64,000 nt of DNA from Candidatus Krumholzibacteriia bacterium (GCA_963836185.1 CAWIIQ010000001.1:512001-576000); one strand, 5' to 3'. Positions 29,325 to 41,128 are shown, counted from the first letter of the stretch. Notes: generated from the sequence alone by a model not told the origin. Program-made: numbers and translations.

Positions 29325-29496
29325 GGGGGTAGCATCTTTTTGTCCCGCATAACGGCTGATATGTCAGGTGTTCGTCTGAAGCCATATCCCGTTGAAGAAA
29401 GGGGATATACGTGGTATAATGCGACCCGGCTAGAATCATGAAAAAATATATCCGGCATCGCTTCGAGGGGCAGTCTTGTCCCGGAAGGAGAGATTT

Positions 29497-30099
29497 ATGC
29501 GAAGAGATAGAGTAGGCCGCACCGCGGCCAGCCTGATCGTGCTGTCGCTTGTCCTGGCAGCGGCGCTCCTGCAGCCGCCAGGGCAGGCCGCGGCAGAAGA
29601 GGAGAAGGCTCCGGGGAATGTTGCTGAGAGTTCTTCATACAGTCTCAGCCGGGCCGTCTTCGGTTCAGCCGGCCGGCAGTCTTCAGGGGCGGCTTACTCG
29701 ATAAACGGCACACTCGGGCAGCCGCATCCGGTCGGGTCCGTCTCCGGTACGAACTACGGGATGTTCGCCGGATTCTGGAGCTGGATCGATCCTGTCGCTA
29801 CAGGCACGGACGATATGCCTCTCGCGTTCAGACTCTCCCAGAACTATCCAAACCCGTTCAATCCAGTTACGACAATAGACTATTCGATATCAGAGAAGGT
29901 TCCGGTCGACCTGGTGATATTCGATGTGTCCGGCCGCAGGGTTCGGACGCTTGTCAGGGAGAAGCAGCTTCCGGGCGGTTACTCGGTCGTCTGGGACGGC
30001 CGCAATGACGGAGGCAGCCCCGTTGCGTCAGGAATCTATTTCTATCGGCTGGCCGCCGGCAGAAACAGCGGTGTAAAAAAGATGGTCATCCTGAGATAG
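29497..30099 (+). CDS. Small secreted protein with Gly-rich N-domain and FlgD-Ig domain
   Basis: Signal peptide; YSINGTLGQP...YGMFAGFW; QNYPNPFNP...KKMVILR. RBS GAAGGAG before ATG 29497. Confidence 0.85.
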   Translation: MRRDRVGRTAASLIVLSLVLAAALLQPPGQAAAEEEKAPGNVAESSSYSLSRAVFGSAGRQSSGAAYSINGTLGQPHPVGSVSGTNYGMFAGFWSWIDPVATGTDDMPLAFRLSQNYPNPFNPVTTIDYSISEKVPVDLVIFDVSGRRVRTLVREKQLPGGYSVVWDGRNDGGSPVASGIYFYRLAAGRNSGVKKMVILR

Positions 30100-30112
30100 G
30101 GAGGAAAGAGCG

Positions 30113-32929
30113 ATGAGTAAAACTATCAAGGTTCTGGCGCTGATGACCGGGATGATTGTTCTCACCGTCTCGGTGAGCGCGCAGATACCCGGGCGCATCA
30201 ATTACCAGGGACTTGTCGTGGACAAAGAGACGGGCGAAAGCCTCGAGGGGCCGGTGGTCCTGACTTTCAGGCTGTTCAAGCTGGATGATTGCGACACCGG
30301 CACCCAGTCAGATGCGTTTTGGTCCGAGATACATACCTCGGTCGATCTGGACAACGGGATATTCAGCGTCATGCTCGGAAGTGTGACGGCCTTTCCCGAC
30401 AGCCTTAAATTCGACGAGGAGTATTGTCTCGGCATCGAACTGGATGGAGAGGAACTGCTGCCGCGGCAGCCTCTCTCATCGGTCGCCTATGCGATGAATT
30501 CTCTTCGGGCAGATACGGCGCTGACGGTCCTCGAGTATCCCTCTCACAACCACAACGATCTGTACTACACCGAAGCGGAACTCAACACCGCCGGGACGCT
30601 GAACGATCCTGCGAACCCGGTTGACTGGACGAACCTGAAGAACGTTCCGGCTGATTTTGCCGACGGGATAGATAATACATCCGCGGGGGGATTCCTCGAG
30701 GTCCTCGCTGGAGAGGGGCTTTCGGAAGAGGTGCTTGGGGACACCAAGGTCCTCTCCGTCACGCCCGGCGGGATCCAGGAGACGATGCTCGCAGACAGCG
30801 CGGTCACCGGGGACAAGATCCGCAGCAACTCGATCACTTCCTCGCAGATCGCCTCCGGTGCGGTCACCGCAAGCGAGATAGCTTCCGGGACTATCACCTC
30901 CGCGCAGATAGCGGCGAGCACGATCACGGCAGCCGAGATCTCCGGCAATACGATAACCGCGGCTCAGATCTCTCCTGCCGCGATCACCGCCAACGAGATA
31001 TCCGGCAACACCCTTACGGCCGATCAGCTGGCGACGGCCGCGGTCGACAGCGATGAGCTTGCCGACAGTTCTGTCACGACTGAAAAGATAGCCCCGGATG
31101 CCGTGACGGGAGCCGAGATTGCGGACAATGCGGTGACCACTTCGGAAATAGCCGACGGCACGGTCATGTTCGGTGATATCGGGCAGAACGGAGCCTCGGC
31201 AGGCCAGGTGATGATGTGGAACGGCTCGGCCTGGGTGCCTGACGACGACAGCGAAGGCGGAGTCGGGGACATCACTTCCGTTACGGCAGGCGCCGGATTG
31301 AGCGGCGGCGGGGACACCCTTGATGTGACGCTTGCCGTCGATTTTGCCGGTACAGGTACCGTCGATTCAGTGGCTAGAAGCGACCACGGCCACGATCTGA
31401 CTTATGTGAACGAAGGACAGATCGATGCGGTCAGCGGCGCGATGATCGTAGACGGGACGATCGGTTTCGAGGATATCGCTCAGAACGGAGCATTGGCCGG
31501 CCAGGTGATGAAGTGGGACGGTCTGGCCTGGGCCGCGGCGGATGATTCTGTCGGTGCCGGTGGATCCGGCAGCGGGGGATGGGCCGACGACGGGTCCGTT
31601 GTCAGGCTCGAGGCCGGCATCGATTCCGTGGGGATCGGGACGGCAATGCCGACGGAGAAACTCGATGTAGTCGGAAACATGCGCGTGAGTGGAACGGCTG
31701 TGACCGGACCGGGGCATAACATCCACCCCGGCGGTAACGGCATCAATATTACCGGGGAGAATCACGAGGCGGATGGCGACAATGTCATAATAGGCGGAGG
31801 TTCGGAGAACCAGGCGCATGGCGATCATACGACGGTCGCGGGCGGCTGGCAGAATACTGCCGATAGCGACTTCGCGACAGTCGGAGGAGGGACATTGAAC
31901 AGGGCCCTCGGAATGTATTCGGTCGTATCCGGTGGCGGAGGAGAATACTCCCACGAGGAAAACAGGGCGGAAGGCAATTACTGCGTGATCGGGGGAGGGA
32001 GTCAGAACAGGGCCGGGAGTACCTCAAGTCCCGAGGAGGATTATTACTACGCTACCGTCAGCGGAGGGCAGGACAACCGGGCAGAGAGAAGATACTGTAC
32101 TGTGGGAGGGGGCCAGGAAAACAGAGCGAGTGAAGAGTACGCGACAGTCGGCGGCGGCAGGCAGAACACCGCAGAGGGGAGATCGACAGTCGGGGGCGGC
32201 AGCAACAACATGGCTCTTAACGGAAACAGCACCGTCGCGGGCGGTATGGACAATACAGCGCATAATGGTGCGACAGTCGGCGGCGGCAGTAATAACCTCG
32301 CCAGCGGGGACGGATCGACGATTCCAGGAGGGCGAGAGAACGAAGCGACTGAAACCGGCACATTTGCCGCCGGATCGATGGCTAGAGCGAGGCACGAGGG
32401 CTCGTTTGTCCTCGCGGCGAGCTGGCCGTCGAGTGGTGACGATACGATCTCTACAGGAGGGGACGAGCAGTTCGTCATCCGTGCCGACGGGGGGATCTAC
32501 CTGACGAACACGAGCGAGCAGGCGACCTACAACCCCACGAGGTTAATAAATACTTCGACCGGAGCATATCTCGCCAATGACGGTACATGGCACGACTCAT
32601 CTGACCGGAACCTTAAGGAGAATTTCGAGCCGGTCGACGGTGAGGAACTACTCGAGAAGATCTCCGAACTTCCCGTCACGAAGTGGAACTACAAGATCGA
32701 CGATGGGAAAGCATCGCACATCGGCCCCGTAGCGCAGGACTTTTACTCGATCCTTGGCATAGGCAGCGACGACAGGACGATTGCCGCCCTTGACGAGGCA
32801 GGCGTATCTCTCGCCGCGGTCCAGCAGCTCTACCTGAGATCGAAGGGCCAGGAGAGCGAGATTGAGGACCTGAGAAATGAGATCAGTGAGCTGAAGAAGC
32901 TCGTCAGGACGTTGTTGGACAAAGAATAA
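30113..32929 (+). CDS. Secreted tail-fibre/adhesin-like protein with C-terminal Peptidase_S74 intramolecular chaperone
   Basis: Signal peptide + INYQG; 10-aa ITxxQI repeats; TVGGGxxNxA repeats; SSDRNLKENF..WNYK..HIGPVAQDF; terminal coiled coil. Confidence 0.88.
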   Translation: MSKTIKVLALMTGMIVLTVSVSAQIPGRINYQGLVVDKETGESLEGPVVLTFRLFKLDDCDTGTQSDAFWSEIHTSVDLDNGIFSVMLGSVTAFPDSLKFDEEYCLGIELDGEELLPRQPLSSVAYAMNSLRADTALTVLEYPSHNHNDLYYTEAELNTAGTLNDPANPVDWTNLKNVPADFADGIDNTSAGGFLEVLAGEGLSEEVLGDTKVLSVTPGGIQETMLADSAVTGDKIRSNSITSSQIASGAVTASEIASGTITSAQIAASTITAAEISGNTITAAQISPAAITANEISGNTLTADQLATAAVDSDELADSSVTTEKIAPDAVTGAEIADNAVTTSEIADGTVMFGDIGQNGASAGQVMMWNGSAWVPDDDSEGGVGDITSVTAGAGLSGGGDTLDVTLAVDFAGTGTVDSVARSDHGHDLTYVNEGQIDAVSGAMIVDGTIGFEDIAQNGALAGQVMKWDGLAWAAADDSVGAGGSGSGGWADDGSVVRLEAGIDSVGIGTAMPTEKLDVVGNMRVSGTAVTGPGHNIHPGGNGINITGENHEADGDNVIIGGGSENQAHGDHTTVAGGWQNTADSDFATVGGGTLNRALGMYSVVSGGGGEYSHEENRAEGNYCVIGGGSQNRAGSTSSPEEDYYYATVSGGQDNRAERRYCTVGGGQENRASEEYATVGGGRQNTAEGRSTVGGGSNNMALNGNSTVAGGMDNTAHNGATVGGGSNNLASGDGSTIPGGRENEATETGTFAAGSMARARHEGSFVLAASWPSSGDDTISTGGDEQFVIRADGGIYLTNTSEQATYNPTRLINTSTGAYLANDGTWHDSSDRNLKENFEPVDGEELLEKISELPVTKWNYKIDDGKASHIGPVAQDFYSILGIGSDDRTIAALDEAGVSLAAVQQLYLRSKGQESEIEDLRNEISELKKLVRTLLDKE

Positions 32930-33067
32930 AGGCTTGATAGACAAAGGGTTACATTCCTCCGCGTTTTTCCCGTTGTAATAACTGATAATAATTAGTGTAT
33001 TATTATACGTGGCCTGATTATCATGTGCCTTGCCGACTTACATCCATGTATCAGGGAGCGTGAAACG

Positions 33068-34351
33068 ATGAGTATCTCTTCAGGACCCTGGATTCGTTTG
33101 CTGTATCGTCTATTATTCTGCTTTCGATCTCCGCTGTCGCGCCGCGGCGGGGCTATTCTCGGGCCTGAGCAGATCGTCCAGGCGGGCGGCATGGATATTA
33201 ACATTCCCGGATACTCGGTCCCCTCGTTTGTCGACTGGAACAGTGACGGCCTGAATGATCTCGTGGTAGGAGAGGGAAGCGGGCTCACCGGGTTCGGCCT
33301 TGTGCGCGTATATCTCAACAGCGGCACTCCGGGTGATCCCGCCTTTACGGGGTATTTTCATGCGCAGTCGAACGGGTCCGTGCTGCAGAGTCCCGGCGGC
33401 GGCTGAATGGGGATCTTTCCCCGCGTGGTCGACGCGGATCTGGACGGCCGGAAGGACTTGCTCACAGGCGAGGCCGAAGGCAACATCAGGCTCTATCTCA
33501 ATATCAATACAGATACAGATCCGTCATTCGATGGCGGCACTCTGATCGAGGTCGGCCCGGCCGGCTCGAAGACAGCCATCGATGTCGGGCAGCGCACGAC
33601 CCCTGTTGTAGTCGACTGGGACAACGATGGCAGGAGGGATATCGTCGTCGGCAGCAAGGACGGCGTGGTGAGGCTCTACAGAAACACCGGCACCGATGCG
33701 GCATGGGATTTCGAAAGCGCGGAGATGATACTCGATGGAGGTATCGATCTCGTTGTACCTGCTCTTCGATCGAGCCCGCATATCGAGGACCTCGACGGCG
33801 ACGGGAAAAAGGACATTCTTGCAGGCAACACAGCGGGCCAGATCATGACCTGGTTCAATACGGGCACGGATGCCGTGCCTGTCTATAACGGATACACCCC
33901 TGTCGAGTCGGACGGTTCGGCGATAGACCTCGCTGGCGACCAGAGAGCGCGGCCTTTCGTATGCGACTGGAACGACGACGGGATCAGGGATCTGTTGATC
34001 GGGTACGGCGACGGCCTGGTACGTCTGTACATCGGCCTGTCCGACCTGACGGAGTGCGTGTGCGATACTCCTGCTTCGGTCCGGTTCCTGCAGGCCTGGC
34101 CCAATCCATTCAATCCCGTTACGACGATCGGATTCGAACTCGATGTGAGGGGGCCGGCGAGTCTTCGCATCTACGACGCTACGGGAAGACTGGTAAAGAC
34201 TCTCGCGAACGGCCTCTTCGACGCGGGGCTTCACGAGACGGTCTGGAACGGGACGGGGGACGCAGGCCAGCGGGTCTCGAGCGGGATGTATTTCTGCAGG
34301 TTCGAATCGGGGACATTCCGGCAGACCCAGAAACTCATACTGCTGAGATAG
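33068..34351 (+). CDS. FG-GAP/VCBS-repeat + FlgD-Ig protein with in-frame UGA (33404-33406), predicted selenoprotein
   Basis: ORFs 33023-33406 and 33407-34351 share a frame and are separated only by TGA. Five DxxxDG repeats run across the junction. WPNPFNP...QKLILLR. SECIS-like hairpin follows the UGA. Confidence 0.75.
33412..33440 (+). promoter_or_regulatory. Putative bacterial SECIS element
   Basis: Stem CCGCGT(33421-26)/ACGCGG(33432-37) with loop GGTCG starting after a 20-nt gap from the UGA. Possible lower GAT/ATC pairing. Confidence 0.65.
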
Positions 34352-34374: not shown

Positions 34375-37300
34375 TCAATATTCTTTGCTCCAGTTGATTT
34401 CCAGCCCCGTTTCCTGATCCTGATCGATGAAGCTCTCGATCTTGAAACGTTTCGTCAGCTGGTACTCGAGGTTGATCAGGAAATTGGCCGTGTTCTCCAG
34501 GCCCTGTTCGTACTTGAGCATAGTCTTTGTGTTTATGTACTTGCCTACGGTCAGGGCCGTCTCATTCGGATCCCTCGTGCTCTGCTGGAAGGTGAACATA
34601 TCCACGCCGAGTCTTTTTGACATCTCCCCTTCCAGTTTCGAGGCGCCGAATACCAGCAGGATCTCCGTGGTCCGTTCCTGAAGCAGGTTCGACTGGGAGC
34701 CATCGAGGTTGTCCATTGTCTGGCCGAAAAGGAGGAGGGACATGATATCGCTCTCCGACTTGGCCGGATTGGAGGTGAGCTCGATCTCTGGCTCGAGCGC
34801 CGTTCCAGTGAGCTTGATGAAGATGTCTATGTCGGTCACTTTCGCTTTCAGGCTCAGGTCGAACGACGGATTCATCTCGTCCTCTCCATAGAAGAAGACA
34901 CTGCCGCGCTGGATCTCGAAGTACCTTCCCATGAAAGAGAGCCTGCCCTTGGTCGGTTTAAGTTCGCCTGTTATGACAGGCCTGTCTCCCTGCTGCCTGA
35001 TATGAAGGTCGCCCTCCAGCTCGAAGTTGATCCGTTCGCTCTCGATCCGGAAGGAGTTGGGAATGGAGATCGTCACGTCGATATCCATTCCTTTGAAGCC
35101 CTCCGGTTCACCTGCGCCCAGACTGTCCGGATTGCTGTTTTCAGCCGCCGTAGTGTCGTTCGAGATACGGAAGGAGTCGGCAGCTACCCACAGGATCGCG
35201 TCGCCTTCGACATCGTGAAGACTCTCCTTCATCTCGGGAAGGCGGAGCAACGCGCGCTCGATGACGACGCTTCCCCTGACGGACGGTCTGGCAAGGTCGC
35301 CTCCGAATTCAAGGTTTATTGTCGGGGAGGCCTGAAGATCGCTCGCTACCGCGATGGACATGTCTTTCGTGTCGAGCCGGCCGCTGAAGCCGGGGTTGGC
35401 GATATCTCCGGCTGCGGTGAATTCTATATTCATGATTCCTTCAAGGTCGATATCGGGCGGAAGCAGCGGATCGAGGTCGGTGAGGGCCAGTTCCTTCGAT
35501 TTGATTTCTACAAGCATCTCAGCGGCTTCAGGATGCTCGAGCTTGAAAGGGGCAAGAGTAACATCCAGCGGGTATTCGAAGACACCGGTCAGGACATCCT
35601 GTTTCGATTTCGTAAGTGAGAGACTGGCAGACAGGCCTGAAGTACGGGATCCGGCAGCTGCTCCCGCTGCGTTCCTCGAACTCATCAGCCGTGTAAGTGC
35701 TGTATCAGATACAGCCTCGCGCGCGTACGTCCCGTCTATGGAGAGCAAGTATTTTTCAAGCTCCTCGCCCCCTGTAAATGCGCAATCGAGCTGAACGACA
35801 GCTTCGGGATCTGAGAAGGTGCCCCTGGCCGCTATCCTTCCGCTGAGCGAACCAATCAGCCTGGGACTATCGGATATAAAGGGATTAGCGTTGCCCGACA
35901 CCGGCATCCCGTCTATGACCATGTCCATCATGAGCGGGCCCTTCTTGAACGATCCATCTTTCTGAAGGGGTGGAAGGGTGCTTTCCAGTGAGATGATCGT
36001 CTTCTTCGGGCCCTCGATACCAAACGACGCCTGAACGGCATGGTCGTCTGATGACACGTTGAAGTTGATCGCGGTCCTTCTCCCGTCGACGATCGTTATC
36101 CCGCTTATCATACCATCCGCGGTAACTCTCGAAAGGCCATCGGCGCGTACGTCGACAGTCACGCTGTCGGGCCAGAGGCGGTCAGTGATCCTGATCATCT
36201 TTGGCTTCTTTGGCACAGCGATCTCGATATGAGCTTCCAGGTCGGAGGAGTCAGGGGACGCGGACCCGTTCGCCCTTATGCTCCCGATGCTTCCCTCGAG
36301 AGAGAGCCCGTCCACGATGAAGCCGCCCCCGGCGATCGTGGATATCGTGAACGGACCTGTCGATGCCAGGGTCTGCCCTGAGAGAGAAGTGAAGAAGGTG
36401 TCGGCGCGAACGGAGAAGCCGTTCCCCTGCGGCATCCTCAAAGCGATAAGTATGTTCGAGTCGATTCCGTCGGCGGCAAGCCTTACGGCCGGGCCGGTCG
36501 TATCGCCAGGTTCCGCCTGATCGGTGTAGGAAGCCCTGACGCTGTCGAACATGACGACGCTTGTCTGGAGCCCTTCGGGAAGGAAAAGGCCGGCGGTCGT
36601 TATCCCCTCGTTCCTTTCTGCAGTCCCGGAATATCGCGGGATGACCAGGCCATCGGTGGAAAGCATGCCTTCGATGCCGATTGAATACAGACGGATCGTC
36701 CTTCGTTCCCGTGATCCTGCAGTCAGCGTTCATCGTCAGGTTGATACTTCTGCCGGCGAGCCGTTCCAGCCGCCGGACGAGAAGCGAATCGGAGAGTGAC
36801 ACTGCGGCTGCGAGATCGATCATCTCTCCGGCGATGCCGCCTTCCGCCGAGATCCTCAGCCCCTCGAATACGACCAGGGCGGTATCGACGGCCATGCTGC
36901 CGCCGCTGCCTTTGATCGAGACGAGGGCGGTATCGATCCATTCCGTTCTACCTAGATCGAAACGCCCCGCGATGGAGCTTCCGCTGTCTTCCGGCGCTAT
37001 TGCCGCCTCAAAATCTATCATCATCGGGCCGAGGTCTACGATTGCGTCTCCCTTTCCCGTCAGTGGAGCGAGCAAGCGCGGGCCGGGAAGCAATGCGGAG
37101 CCGGCCGCTGTTATCTCACGGCCATTGTGCGCGATTGTTCCGCCGACACTGAGTGAGAACGGCCCATCGGCCCGCCACAGGGCCGTCATGGAATCCCATG
37201 ATGAAGAATCGGGCTGGAGCATCGTTTTCAGCGAAGCGGGAGGTTCGGGCCACTCCCCGCGAATGTCAAACCGGCCGCTGCGCGTGGAGTCGATATCCGC

Positions 37301-38935
37301 GCTTACAGAGATTTTTCCGAACATCCCTTCGGTGTGAAGGTCCCGTATAGCAATATCGCCGGTCACGCCGTCCACGCGCACATTCCCGGCGAGATAAACC
37401 GTTCCCGAATCGGGCCATGTCCCGTCAGTGCGTGAGAGTGTCACATCGATGCCGGAGGAGAGATCGGCGACGGCGCTTGTTATGATCCTTATACCGGAGG
37501 TCTCTAAAAGAAGATCTGCCGTATATGGATCGCTTCTCTCCACGGGAATAAATCCCGAGACATCTATAGAATCCAGGGAGGTTCCACCCGCTGTAAGATG
37601 TCCCGTGAGCAGCATCGGTATTCCTTCCGGTCCCCCGCACTCACCAGTTTCGAGTCTCAGTTCGGCGGAGGTCCCCTCAGGGAGTGAAACTCCGGGAAGT
37701 ATACGTGTCAGCCATGTCATGCTGTCGGCCCTCAACTGTGCGGACAGATCGGGGATACTGTCTGTCAGCGAGCCGGAGGCGCTCAACATGAGTCCGGGCA
37801 TCTCGAGAAGCAGGTCTTCGACCTCTATCAGATCATCCGCGTATGTTCCGGAGAGATGAAGAGTGTCGATATAGGAGGTACCTCTGAGATGCATGTCCGC
37901 GGACGCCGAGAAAGACGGCGACAGGGCAAGGTGACCCGTGATATTGCCGCGGGCGCCTTCCAGGACCCCGATCCCTTCGAGCGAACCTGCAAGGAAGGGG
38001 AGAGCAGCCAGTTCTTCGGTTCCCGGGGTGAGAAACTCGATCTCCAGGTCGATCGATTCGATGCGGTGGTCGACGACCTTGGCGATGCCGCCGATTGATA
38101 TAAATACGCCAGCCGCGGCCGAAGGGCCGTCAGCAGGGACGATTCGGATCGTGAATGAACTGTCCGGCTCCGTACTGCATATCATGCGGACATCCATATC
38201 GTGGGGCAGCAGGATTCTGCCGTTACCATCGAGAGATGGAGCGGCCAGATCCGCTTTCAGCCGGAAACTGTCGACGGATACGGGTGCGCTGGACCTGTCG
38301 AGGGACAGTTCCTCGATCGCTATGAACGGTTCTGACCCGGAGAGAAGGTCCAGCCCGCCGGACAGCTTCAGTCCGACCAGCTCGACTCCATCCGCGGCGA
38401 TGATCCGCCGTCCTTCGACTTCGATCCTGTCGACGGCGATCGAGGGGACGCCGGGGAGCGATCCGGCACGGGGGAATCCGCCTCCAGAGCTTTCCTGATC
38501 CATTGATCTGTCCGTAGCACCGGCGCTGTCTGCCGAGTAGGCGAAGATCTCCGTGATCGCCGGGATATCCGCGCCGATTCCGCGAAGCGCGACCTTATGG
38601 ATGTGAATATCTCTCGAGAACAGTCTGGAGATATCGATCGATACGGCAAGTTCTCCCGCCTCGGCGAGGGTGTCCGTGTAGTCTGTCCAGGCCACTCCAT
38701 CGATCTCGATGGTTCCGAGGGAGGGCCAGCGCGCCTCCGATACTGCAAACTCGCCGGGAAGTGAATGCCCCGCCCTGGATATGGCAATATCAAGCGCCTT
38801 CTCACGTACGGGCCTTACGAGCAGGAGCAGCAAGAGGATGATCACTATGGCGAACAGCGCCGCCGCCGCAATGGCGAGTATCTTAAGTGTCTTTCTTATG
38901 CCGTTCTTAACATTCATCGTCTCTATACTCATCAC
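34375..38935 (-). CDS. tamB: Translocation and assembly module TamB; frameshift near 36680
   Basis: N-terminal TM; long beta-rich body; C-terminal DUF490-like LTSNP..SESDIMSLLLFG, LTVGKY and W..EY end. Directly downstream of an Omp85 gene. Confidence 0.82.
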
Positions 38936-40764
38936 ATCGGGTATCCGATAGCGAAGTGGAACGCGTATTCAGGTTCGTCCGGCTGGTAGTCAGTCAGCCT
39001 GTAACCGAAGTCGAAGCGAAGCGGGCCGACGGGAGTCATGATCCGGATTGCGGGACCTACGGCGATCTCGATATTGTCCCAGGTGAAGTCGCTGTGTGTC
39101 TGCCAGGCCTGTCCATAGTCGGCGAAGATCGCTCCATTGAATTTCCAGAAAAGCGGGAACCGCAGCTCGACGAAGCCTGTCATCATCACTTCGCCGCCGA
39201 GAGGCAGGCCGTTTTCGTCCAGCGGCCCAAGTTTTCTCCTGTTGAAGCCCCTGTGAGACGTTGATCCCCCAGCGTAGAACCGTTTGTCGGGGAGAAGCAC
39301 CAGTGATGGTGATATTGGAGTGGCCGATCCCAGGTGCAGGTTCGTAGCGAATGCGAGTTTCTTCGTAATGGGGATATGCGCCGTCCCATTGATCTCGGCG
39401 AGAAAATAGCTGCTGTTCGAAACTCCACCTTCCGGGCCGTACTGGATGCTGAACCAGGAATAAGTGCCCTTCGTCGGATTGATGCGGTCGTCAGTGCCGT
39501 CACGCACGATGCGATAAAAGAACCATGTAACCGGTCCCTTGGGATCCTCGAAGTATTCCTGCTCCGTCGTTTTGACGGTGTAGTCAGCCCTCTCGATCAC
39601 ATATCCGATCGATGATTTCATTGTGCGGGAGTGGGCAAGGCTGAGACCGACACCGATGCCGGGGGCTGTCTTGTCATAACTGTCCTCGCTGATGTCGTCT
39701 ATTCCGATTCGCAAGGTCCCTACCACCCTGGCATTGAACAGAGCCGGCCACCATGATACCCATCTGCCGGTCCTCTTGTACTGGGTGTAGGAGAGTTCGA
39801 TGCTAGAGCCGCGGCCTCTCTTAAAGAGGTTGGAATGCCTCCACCGGACCCTCGCGCTGAAGCCGTCGTCCGACCAGTATCCTCCCGCGAGTTCTATAAG
39901 GCGATGCTGCCTTTCCGAAAGCTCTACGACCATGGCAAGTGAGTCCGGCCCGGTATCCTCGAGCGAGATGCGGATCTGCCTGAAGAGCTGCAGGTTCGAG
40001 AGATTCTCTCTCGCGTCAGTGACCATCTTCGGCTTGAATCGTTCGCCCCTGTCGATGTTTATCGCGATCAGAGCCAGCTTGTTGAGATCCTCGCTCGCCC
40101 CGCTCGCACGGAAATCGTCGAAGTAATAGACCGCACCCGCCTCTATCTGGATGCGCACTCTTACCGTAGTCGTGTCTGTCATTTCCACGGATGATGACGC
40201 GGTAGCGCGGGCATGGCCTGCCTCTCTCAATATCTCCAGAACGGCTATTTCATCGGCTACAAGGTCATTGTCGGAAAAGATCGAACCAGCCTTCGTCTTC
40301 ATCTTTTCCGCGGCCGGTTCCCTGAAATGTTCAGGCAGGCCGTTGATCTGGAGGCCCGAGACTCTGACTGGAGGTCCGGGGTCGATATCAAGTGTGAGCT
40401 TGATCTCACGCTTATCCTCTTTCGCAGAGACTGACAAAGAGACCGTGCTGTATGGATATCCCCGTAAAGCGTAAAAGAGGCGTATCCTGTCGAGATCCCT
40501 TTCGAGGCTTCGCTCGTAGAGAGCGGCGTCCTTTTCCTTTAGCTCCAGGCCCTTCTCGAGCTCATCGATATATGTTTTGTCCGGGGCGGTGAGTGAAAGT
40601 GAGCTGACTTCCCAGCCCCGGTAGTTGGATATCTTGTCCCATATGGCAGTGTCATCGGCAACAACGGAGGAGGCGACAGAACCAGCGGCATGCACCTGCT
40701 CCTGCTGCGCATGAGCGGGTATGGTGATGGCCAGAAACATCAGAATGACAAGAAGGCGTTGCAT
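38932..40764 (-). CDS. tamA: Omp85-family outer membrane protein (TamA/BamA) with POTRA domains
   Basis: RFYAGGSTSHRGF, TPVGPLRFDFGY and FHFAIGYPM. The signal peptide starts at MQRLLVILMF (40764). Confidence 0.85.
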   Translation of the reverse strand: MQRLLVILMFLAITIPAHAQQEQVHAAGSVASSVVADDTAIWDKISNYRGWEVSSLSLTAPDKTYIDELEKGLELKEKDAALYERSLERDLDRIRLFYALRGYPYSTVSLSVSAKEDKREIKLTLDIDPGPPVRVSGLQINGLPEHFREPAAEKMKTKAGSIFSDNDLVADEIAVLEILREAGHARATASSSVEMTDTTTVRVRIQIEAGAVYYFDDFRASGASEDLNKLALIAINIDRGERFKPKMVTDARENLSNLQLFRQIRISLEDTGPDSLAMVVELSERQHRLIELAGGYWSDDGFSARVRWRHSNLFKRGRGSSIELSYTQYKRTGRWVSWWPALFNARVVGTLRIGIDDISEDSYDKTAPGIGVGLSLAHSRTMKSSIGYVIERADYTVKTTEQEYFEDPKGPVTWFFYRIVRDGTDDRINPTKGTYSWFSIQYGPEGGVSNSSYFLAEINGTAHIPITKKLAFATNLHLGSATPISPSLVLLPDKRFYAGGSTSHRGFNRRKLGPLDENGLPLGGEVMMTGFVELRFPLFWKFNGAIFADYGQAWQTHSDFTWDNIEIAVGPAIRIMTPVGPLRFDFGYRLTDYQPDEPEYAFHFAIGYPM

Positions 40765-41033
40765 TGAAACAGTATACCTTATAGGGAAGGTTTGGGAAAG
40801 GCAGGAACCTCCCGCTGCCTTGCATTCACTGCCTGTGATGGTCTTGCCCGGGCGGGCGGGATAGAGTCTTTTGTTGCAGGTCCGGGCGGTTTTCACCTCC
40901 TGAAGCGATGTCAATTTCCGTTTCCCGGCCGGAAAAAATGGCGGTCCTGACGTTCCCTGTAATTTCCCGTTTTTTCCCATGTTGCTGTTGTCGTTTTCCA
41001 TCGTCCCTGTAGTAATATTTCCAATCCCGGGGC

Positions 41034-41049
41034 GGGCATGGAACTTGCC
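41034..41049 (+). promoter_or_regulatory. Candidate sigma54 promoter
   Basis: GGGCATGGAACTTGCC has GG(41035-36)-N10-GC(41047-48), 80 bp upstream of the 41129 gene. Confidence 0.55.
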
Positions 41050-41128
41050 GAAATCCACTTCAGCCAGTGTAAATCTGTATCAATTCTCTCCCGCGTGACA
41101 GGGCAGAACGGCAGCAGAGGGGGAAGCG

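Follow-up and report, generated by a model that had tools for sequence, protein, structure and literature searches.

With regard to decoding, the closest described counterparts of the gene analysed here are the SelB-dependent, bSECIS-containing genes represented by fdhF of Escherichia coli; with regard to architecture, they are the FG-GAP/VCBS repeat propellers and the five-bladed propellers of the glycoside hydrolase families GH43, GH62 and GH32. The gene lies in a window of 64,000 nucleotides (the whole stretch of DNA that was analysed) from a Candidatus Krumholzibacteriia bacterium, and all positions are counted from the first letter of the window. With the fdhF-type genes it shares an in-frame UGA at the position of a cysteine column, a hairpin within the coding sequence whose loop starts with a G at 20 nt from the UGA, and the selABCD set, of which selB is frameshifted here. 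In contrast, the encoded protein resembles, by name or by domain, none of the 119 families in Table 1 of the 2026 review on the prokaryotic selenoproteome (PMC13188914).

FG-GAP propellers usually consist of seven repeats. Integrin alpha, CRTAC1/ASPIC-UnbV, ITFG2 and the Psathyrella and Agrocybe lectins share DxDxDG-type repeats and export with the protein described here and match it weakly in sequence and fold, but the latter contains five repeats and carries an invariant Cys/Sec and a set of arginines before the first strands. GH43, GH62 and GH32 enzymes have the same blade number and overall fold as predicted here at 7–14% sequence identity, with FG-GAP loops present only in our protein. 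No glycoside hydrolase match was obtained in Pfam, NCBIfam or the PDB sequences, and an acidic catalytic set is unsupported.

Selenocysteine in envelope proteins and selenocysteine beside cysteine both have precedents among the families of Table 1 (PMC13188914), which also lists exported selenoproteins, namely the ABC substrate-binding proteins SaoB and SaoX, a TonB-dependent receptor and ExtKL. The novelty of the protein therefore resides in its fold and not in its export. The folds of SaoB, SaoX, SaoL, SaoC, the TonB-dependent receptor (FCYXU type) and ExtKL are unrelated to it, their NCBIfam models do not match it, and none of the selenoprotein models in NCBIfam 20.0 matches it. The terms FG-GAP, VCBS, propeller, FlgD, T9SS and repeat are absent from the searched text of the review, Table 1 included, and the searched text and four supplements of the deep-Sep paper (PMC12013277) contain only a chance occurrence of the letters 'flgd'. 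A search of the open full-text literature yielded no relevant paper on FG-GAP, VCBS or propeller selenoproteins. The proposal of the initial annotation that the protein falls outside the known selenoprotein families thus agrees with the 119 families of Table 1 (PMC13188914) and with NCBIfam 20.0. While the selenocysteine system is of the known bacterial type, the fold is very likely new to the catalogue. The families described by Haft and Tolstoy in 2025 are included in the review's table.

Gene organisation and reading frame

The gene (33068–34351, plus strand) consists of one reading frame of 427 codons (33068–34348) followed by TAG, whose sole internal stop is the TGA at 33404–33406 in the context SPGGG-TGA-MGIFPRVVD; the two ORFs noticed initially are accordingly a single frame broken by this TGA alone. 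A Shine-Dalgarno-like AGGGAG (33053–33058) precedes the ATG at 33068 by 9 nt, and GGGAG is found at the same site in the same-genus genomes G003 and G154. The product with UGA read as selenocysteine (P0001) comprises a signal-peptide region (33068–33157) that is garbled in the assembled sequence, as judged by DNA alignment and three-frame translation, five FG-GAP repeats at residues 31–327 (33158–34048) predicted to form a five-bladed β-propeller, and a C-terminal FlgD-Ig or T9SS-type sorting-like domain (34097–34339). The repeats were recognized by Pfam (PF13517, 64.3 bits; PF01839, 34.8 bits) and contain DxDxDG-type motifs. One of them is located 5′ and four are located 3′ of the TGA, followed by the tail, so that the Pfam assignments and the repeat layout agree with the arrangement described earlier. 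The tail was matched by PF13860 (38 bits, cut-off 27), PF18962 (27.3 bits, cut-off 27) and TIGR04183 (32.5 bits, cut-off 23), Pfam ranking FlgD_ig above Por_Secre_tail; a tblastn search against the own genome returned more than 100 segments, nearly all of which correspond to this tail. Scans for promoters and terminators gave results at chance level, and no plasmid match was found.

The TGA, at which selenocysteine 113 is predicted in the loop preceding the first strand of blade 2, coincides with a Cys/TGA column of the family. On the basis of the comparisons outlined below we are highly confident that this codon is decoded as selenocysteine by SelB-dependent insertion, and the gene is very likely a member of a genuine, uncatalogued selenoprotein family.

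Cysteine and selenocysteine among relatives

In a database search 7995 candidates were scored, of which 1277 matched at E-values of 1e-20 or better, and membership was checked for the top 120. These best 120 of 1277 matches provided 123 aligned domains, and in all 110 domains that span the site the residue is cysteine. The remaining 13 belong to proteins of 308–314 amino acids that start directly after the site, as expected from truncated gene calls. Additional cysteines are present at position −5 in 35 and at position +3 in 38 of the 110 domains of this close family. Named matches include Planctomycetota, and the tails vary between FlgD-Ig, PEP-CTERM and dockerin types.

Within the phylum the gene was detected in 30 of 208 genomes, in 20 of which a TGA is placed at the cysteine column or one codon earlier. 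Exactly one TGA is present in 21 of the 37 phylum matches, distributed over 20 genomes and four families. The expectation that homologs carry Cys or TGA at this column was hence borne out both in the database domains and in the phylum. The motif occurs in several variants, G-U-[ML], G-U-C (8 copies), U-P-C and C-G-U, and one member (L054) has an arginine at the column. Besides this arginine, L054 has a truncated Cys paralog; a frameshift follows immediately after the TGA in L046 (G094), and L047 (G044) is only a fragment. In a metagenome pattern search at least 17 of 68 matches are family members with TGA, most of the 68 loci being chance matches or duplicates; since the pattern demanded a TGA, it yields no Sec/Cys ratio. 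A contig scan with generic FG-GAP patterns contributed at least four close members among the 75 loci listed.

Mapped onto a tree of 76 rows, the Sec label changes 7 times, and at least four of these changes are forced by strong branches; the tree was calculated by a quick method with the site masked and is unrooted, such that gains are indistinguishable from losses. Four genomes (G065, G011, G005 and G061) each contain both Cys-type and U-C-type paralogs, and in the proteins P0002–P0004 of ca. 700 amino acids two propellers of the Cys type are arranged in tandem, together with a dockerin tail. The second conserved cysteine, C299, in the RPFVCDW motif of repeat 5 (33962–33964), is kept in 108 of 110 database domains and in 24 of 28 aligned Sec carriers. 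Because it is absent from some Sec carriers, it is probably not the partner of the selenocysteine. A search of the ESM Atlas gave no match scoring 0.9 or more; a cluster of 106-aa hypothetical proteins with 93 members, mostly from Ca. Fermentibacterota (score 0.77), may represent N-terminal halves ending at the UGA.

SECIS-like hairpin

According to section 5 of the review, a bacterial SECIS element has a loop of 3–9 nt, a stem of 4–16 bp, a G within the first two loop positions, a distance of 16–37 nt from the UGA and a folding energy of −7.5 kcal/mol or lower (PMC13188914). The candidate element (33421–33437) agrees with this consensus in its loop of 5 nt (GGUCG, beginning with GG), its 6-bp stem CCGCGU/ACGCGG, its distance of 20 nt and its energy of −9.5 kcal/mol, the specificity of this consensus being low with a background of 5–8%. 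The hairpin CCGCGT-GGTCG-ACGCGG is thus located where it had been seen initially; the 20 nt hold for the loop (33427–33431), whereas the stem (33421–33426 and 33432–33437) already begins 15 nt after the UGA. The same hairpin test is passed at 22 of the gene's 266 in-frame positions and by 16 of the 318 ORF pairs that a TGA splits in this genome. A stricter filter that left this gene alone among the 318 TGA splits was fitted post hoc to this hairpin and was given no weight. Local folding did not exceed chance in this copy, with z-scores of 0.17, −0.55 and −1.08 relative to shuffled sequences, and a competing GGGGA/UCCCC hairpin claims the two outer base pairs, whose pair probability is 0.23–0.28 compared to 0.71 for the inner four.

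Across the family, the region from +10 to +36 has a mean folding energy of −9.35 kcal/mol in U carriers (n = 22), −11.8 kcal/mol in U-C carriers (n = 6) and −5.6 kcal/mol in Cys carriers (n = 17), after collapsing 54 rows to distinct windows and leaving out the Arg row. The native sequence folds better than 90% of its synonymous recodings in 18 of 28 UGA carriers, compared to 2 of 17 Cys carriers; in these comparisons of UGA and Cys carriers relatives are not independent and significance is overstated. An isolated bSECIS-type stem of −7.5 kcal/mol or lower was found in 14 of 34 Sec carriers versus 1 of 18 Cys carriers, kin again not being independent, while 20 of the 34 Sec carriers, and also the selD of the own genome, remain above this threshold. 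The stem occurs in two registers, each accompanied by residues that depart from the usual VVxW (VVDA/VVYA and VAR/VAH/VTR, respectively), VVDA being present in some Cys members as well. In each of the 8 U-C copies the register is the one with the loop 21 nt from the UGA. Inspection of the carriers revealed no two-sided compensatory change in the stems. Folding is thus stronger in UGA carriers, but no compensatory pair was seen and the isolated stem is too weak in 20 of 34 carriers. Taken together, the placement of the TGA exceeds chance, the hairpin by itself does not.

Selenocysteine machinery

The own genome (3.5 Mb, 92.5% complete) contains selA above the cut-off (502.6 bits), a long-armed tRNA-Sec (71.2 bits) whose acceptor stem has 8 pairs and whose CCA is preceded by a G, and a selD with its own in-frame TGA (SCSG-U-ASK). 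SelA, selC and selD are intact, and selB was found in frameshifted pieces at G000:C1:47922-49803, so that the presence of the selABCD genes is established with the reservation that selB is broken in this assembly. In relatives, selB is above the cut-off in five of five genomes and full length in four, and all 26 other carriers that were tested have selA, among them genomes with only Cys forms. Within the class, selA is therefore a necessary context and no discriminator.

Two further selenoprotein candidates were recognized by eye in the same genome, each with a hairpin downstream: a SelW/Rdx-like protein with a CxxU motif (EYCVP-U-DY) at G000:C1 ~1386353 (minus strand) and a thioredoxin-like protein with a UxxC motif (FSPT-U-PPC) at G000:C2 ~103353 (plus strand). 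A selenium operon was considered, as Cys paralogs lie 9–10 kb from selA in G011 and G005, but was rejected given that the intervening genes resemble smc and ftsY (G011).

Predicted fold and conserved site

An AlphaFold model based on a 51-row alignment (pLDDT 94.5, pTM 0.92) predicts the FG-GAP domain to be a five-bladed propeller. The best structural matches are five-bladed GH43 and GH62 proteins with Z-scores of 17–18 (top 17.9) and an rmsd of 3.3 Å over 244 residues at ca. 10% identity, whereas Foldseek matches to integrin, CRTAC1 and fungal lectins are weak (TM ca. 0.4–0.5). No close solved structure was found either by sequence against the PDB or by Foldseek. In the model one blade precedes the UGA and four follow it, and read-through would therefore be required for a complete domain.

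Residues R119, R176 and R295 are present in all 110 database domains, R234 and R293 in 109 and Y49 in 108; the set is slightly weaker in Sec carriers, several of which are devoid of R234 or R293. Y49, R176, R234 and R293 occupy positions before the first strand of other blades that are equivalent to Sec113, and R119 and R295 flank strand starts. From the equivalence of the repeats and the general topology of FG-GAP propellers, Sec113 is predicted to lie on the face that points away from the calcium loops, where the central pocket opens, with Tyr49 and four to five conserved arginines next to it. The FG-GAP loops themselves are putative calcium sites, as judged from their motifs. This copy contains neither a cysteine beside the selenocysteine nor a CxxU or UxxC motif nor a thioredoxin fold. 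The initial statement that a redox fold is lacking is correct in this sense, but distant relatives, described in the following, suggest thiol chemistry by their U-C/C-C variants and their fusions to DsbD-N and thioredoxin.

A distant branch with vicinal Sec-Cys and Cys-Cys pairs

In four loci of other phyla, with ca. 27–33% identity, the motif is a pair. The Chthonomonadaceae locus has YG-U-C-VG and the Planctomycetota locus NW-U-C-IG, both associated with good hairpins and with selA in the genome; W-C-C-IG occurs in Rikenellaceae and Ca. Foliamicus, and selA was found in neither of these two genomes. An hhalign comparison of the close family with the distant branch gave a probability of 99.6 with the cysteine column aligned. 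The C-C pair is present in 23 of 24 strong profile matches, where strong denotes at least 80 bits (24 of 74 aligned stretches) in a representative search dominated by long repeat proteins. Among 17 scanned C-C proteins, which represent 15 of the 24 strong matches, long ones being favoured, plus two loci, DsbD_N was detected in 10 (9 over the cut-off), a CGPC thioredoxin in one and DUF4369 in one. The branch lacks the arginine set of the close family, and the functions of both groups need therefore not be identical. Its members (L064, 1612-5197; L066; L070; L076; P0172-P0295) are distributed over Bacteroidota, Armatimonadota, Planctomycetota and Ca. Foliamicus, L064 having two copies in tandem.

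Vicinal cysteines on the face of a β-propeller are known from PQQ methanol dehydrogenase, and adjacent cysteine and selenocysteine from mammalian thioredoxin reductase. Both enzymes offer only an analogy, which applies to the U-C/C-C relatives and not to the single-Sec copy.

Mechanistic implications

Our preferred explanation, held with good confidence as a whole, is that the gene encodes an exported five-bladed FG-GAP propeller in which selenocysteine serves as a thiol-redox centre outside the cytoplasm. In a first scenario, SelB and the hairpin just 3′ of the UGA would insert selenocysteine at codon 113, a signal peptide would export the protein, and the tail would retain it at the cell surface. 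The arginines might then hold an anionic sulfur-containing or oxidised substrate, which would be attacked by the selenol under formation of a selenenyl-sulfide or a mixed adduct, and an extracytoplasmic partner of the DsbD/thioredoxin type would finally re-reduce the selenol. For the redox function proper, i.e. selenol turnover with re-reduction by such a partner, we regard the chances as evenly balanced. The U-C and C-C versions and the DsbD-N and thioredoxin fusions in other phyla would point to extracytoplasmic thiol chemistry. A more far-reaching reading, possible although we lean slightly against it, combines both groups into a multi-phylum superfamily of surface five-bladed propeller selenoenzymes with a new redox fold, which would use a single selenocysteine in an arginine-lined pocket here and, in the sister branch, a vicinal pair, either Sec-Cys or Cys-Cys, to which DsbD-N or thioredoxin would feed. 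If true, it would imply that sediment bacteria carry out extracellular thiol chemistry that depends on selenium.

Two other roles of the selenocysteine have to be weighed. It might be the nucleophile with which a hydrolase or transferase attacks, in a GH43-like pocket, substrates such as sulfate, phosphate or carboxylate esters, thiosulfate or arsenate; Dsb proteins would then not re-reduce it. Five-bladed propeller enzymes carry their active site in the central pocket, the top five-bladed structural matches are enzymes, Y49, R119, R176, R234, R293 and R295 are nearly invariant, and most close relatives have a single U or C without a neighbouring cysteine. We nevertheless consider this role rather unlikely, as ca. 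10% identity to glycoside hydrolases allows no catalytic inference, R234 or R293 is lost in several Sec carriers, and the U-C, U-x-C, C-G-U and C-C variants together with the DsbD-N/thioredoxin fusions favour redox chemistry.

Alternatively, the selenocysteine could be a ligand of a soft metal (Hg, Cu, Zn) or take part in a Se-S bond that supports the structure of a surface lectin or adhesin. This is conceivable insofar as a binding function is frequent among FG-GAP propellers, the Foldseek matches including integrin, CRTAC1 and fungal lectins, the surface tails vary (FlgD-Ig, PEP-CTERM, dockerin), and CU/UC motifs are known from catalogued metal-related selenoproteins. However, the close family shows no conserved cluster of His/Cys ligands, and cysteine and selenocysteine switch repeatedly on the tree. 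Such repeated exchange is more typical of catalytic sites, and we judge a metal-binding or structural role to be improbable.

As a very likely selenoprotein, the protein brings the FG-GAP β-propeller into a prokaryotic selenoproteome in which thioredoxin-like and metalloenzyme folds prevail, and its selenocysteine indicates where the active site probably lies in a large family of proteins annotated as 'VCBS/FG-GAP repeat hypothetical protein'. The family also reveals a systematic annotation error, as gene callers split it at the UGA and deposit leaderless fragments of 308–314 amino acids in the databases. Its natural Cys, Sec, Sec-Cys and Cys-Cys versions provide a test of the contribution of selenium at the cell surface, and it is suited as well for studying how a coding sequence accommodates a SECIS element.

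Leader sequence and assembly quality

Relative to the same-genus genomes G003 and G154, on which the leader alignment is based (the G076 row was set aside), the leader lacks single bases at three places, near 33074, 33143 and 33154; together these gaps amount to one codon and keep the frame. Because of these gaps the assembled N-terminus (MSISSGPWIRLL...) is garbled and makes a poor signal peptide with a hydrophobicity of 1.94, whereas the hydrophobic leader FAVSSIILLSISAVA is present in a different frame. A hydrophobic stretch (9-residue mean of at least 2.2) directly before the propeller is found in 46 of 50 family loci, compared to 1.94 in this copy. By hydropathy, a signal peptide is thus present in the homologs, that of this copy being garbled. 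The initial contrast between a clean UGA and indels elsewhere stands only in part, the UGA being in-frame while the same gene has three indels in its leader.

The leader gaps and the selB frameshifts might be genuine, in which case the family would be real but this copy decaying, with no exported product, a question independent of that of function. Three gaps within one leader and a selB in pieces are what such a decay would look like. Yet indels also affect essential genes of this genome: one of two EF-Tu copies (G000:C1:71107-71980) carries a 1-nt insertion and is otherwise 99.75% identical to its twin. Moreover, propeller and tail show no break, their identity to G003 being 85%, and selA, selC and selD are intact. 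We therefore read the leader gaps and the selB frameshifts as errors of an indel-prone assembly and regard decay of this copy as quite improbable. Seven public sequencing runs were listed (best share of words 0.14); the four that were compared with the region gave only short matching pieces, none of which covers 33404–33406 or the leader.

Alternative readings of the UGA

The TGA could be an ordinary stop that arose by nonsense mutation or base-calling error or that marks where two coupled genes meet (TGA-ATG). In this genome TGA is the most frequent stop (667 of 1231 ORFs of at least 400 codons), an ATG follows directly, and databases call a downstream ORF of 314 amino acids. However, the same TGA recurs in metagenomes and across four families, in 20 genomes, and never as TAA or TAG (0 of the phylum matches), both halves being conserved. 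In carriers the codon after the TGA often specifies Leu, Val, Pro or Cys rather than being ATG, which excludes a coupled TGA-ATG gene pair as explanation, and the split would cut the five-bladed propeller and leave four blades leaderless. We consider an ordinary stop very improbable.

Reading of the UGA as Trp or Cys via an altered code or a Cys-type UCA tRNA is barely conceivable, even though the aligned residue is cysteine and UGA-to-Cys decoding exists in some anaerobes, since RF2 is present above the cut-off and TGA ends most long ORFs, which together indicate the standard genetic code, the sole UCA tRNA of the genome is of the Sec type, and no homolog among the database domains and genome loci has Trp at the column.

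Genomic neighbourhood

A conserved gene neighbourhood of the family was not detected beyond the genus. Directly upstream (29476–32929, plus strand) lie the genes of a FlgD-Ig protein of 207 aa and of a protein of 938 aa that has a Peptidase_S74 chaperone tail, a block that is absent from the same position in G003. Downstream (34375–41058, minus strand), two convergent ORFs of 763 and 894 amino acids resemble, as judged by eye, one TamB-like gene split by a frameshift, and are adjoined by a 708-aa Omp85/TamA-like gene, likewise assigned by eye. In another genome (G082) the homolog adjoins a convergent gene (L233:6326-7471) whose product the source annotates as acetyl-CoA synthase subunit gamma and which may be HgcA-like.
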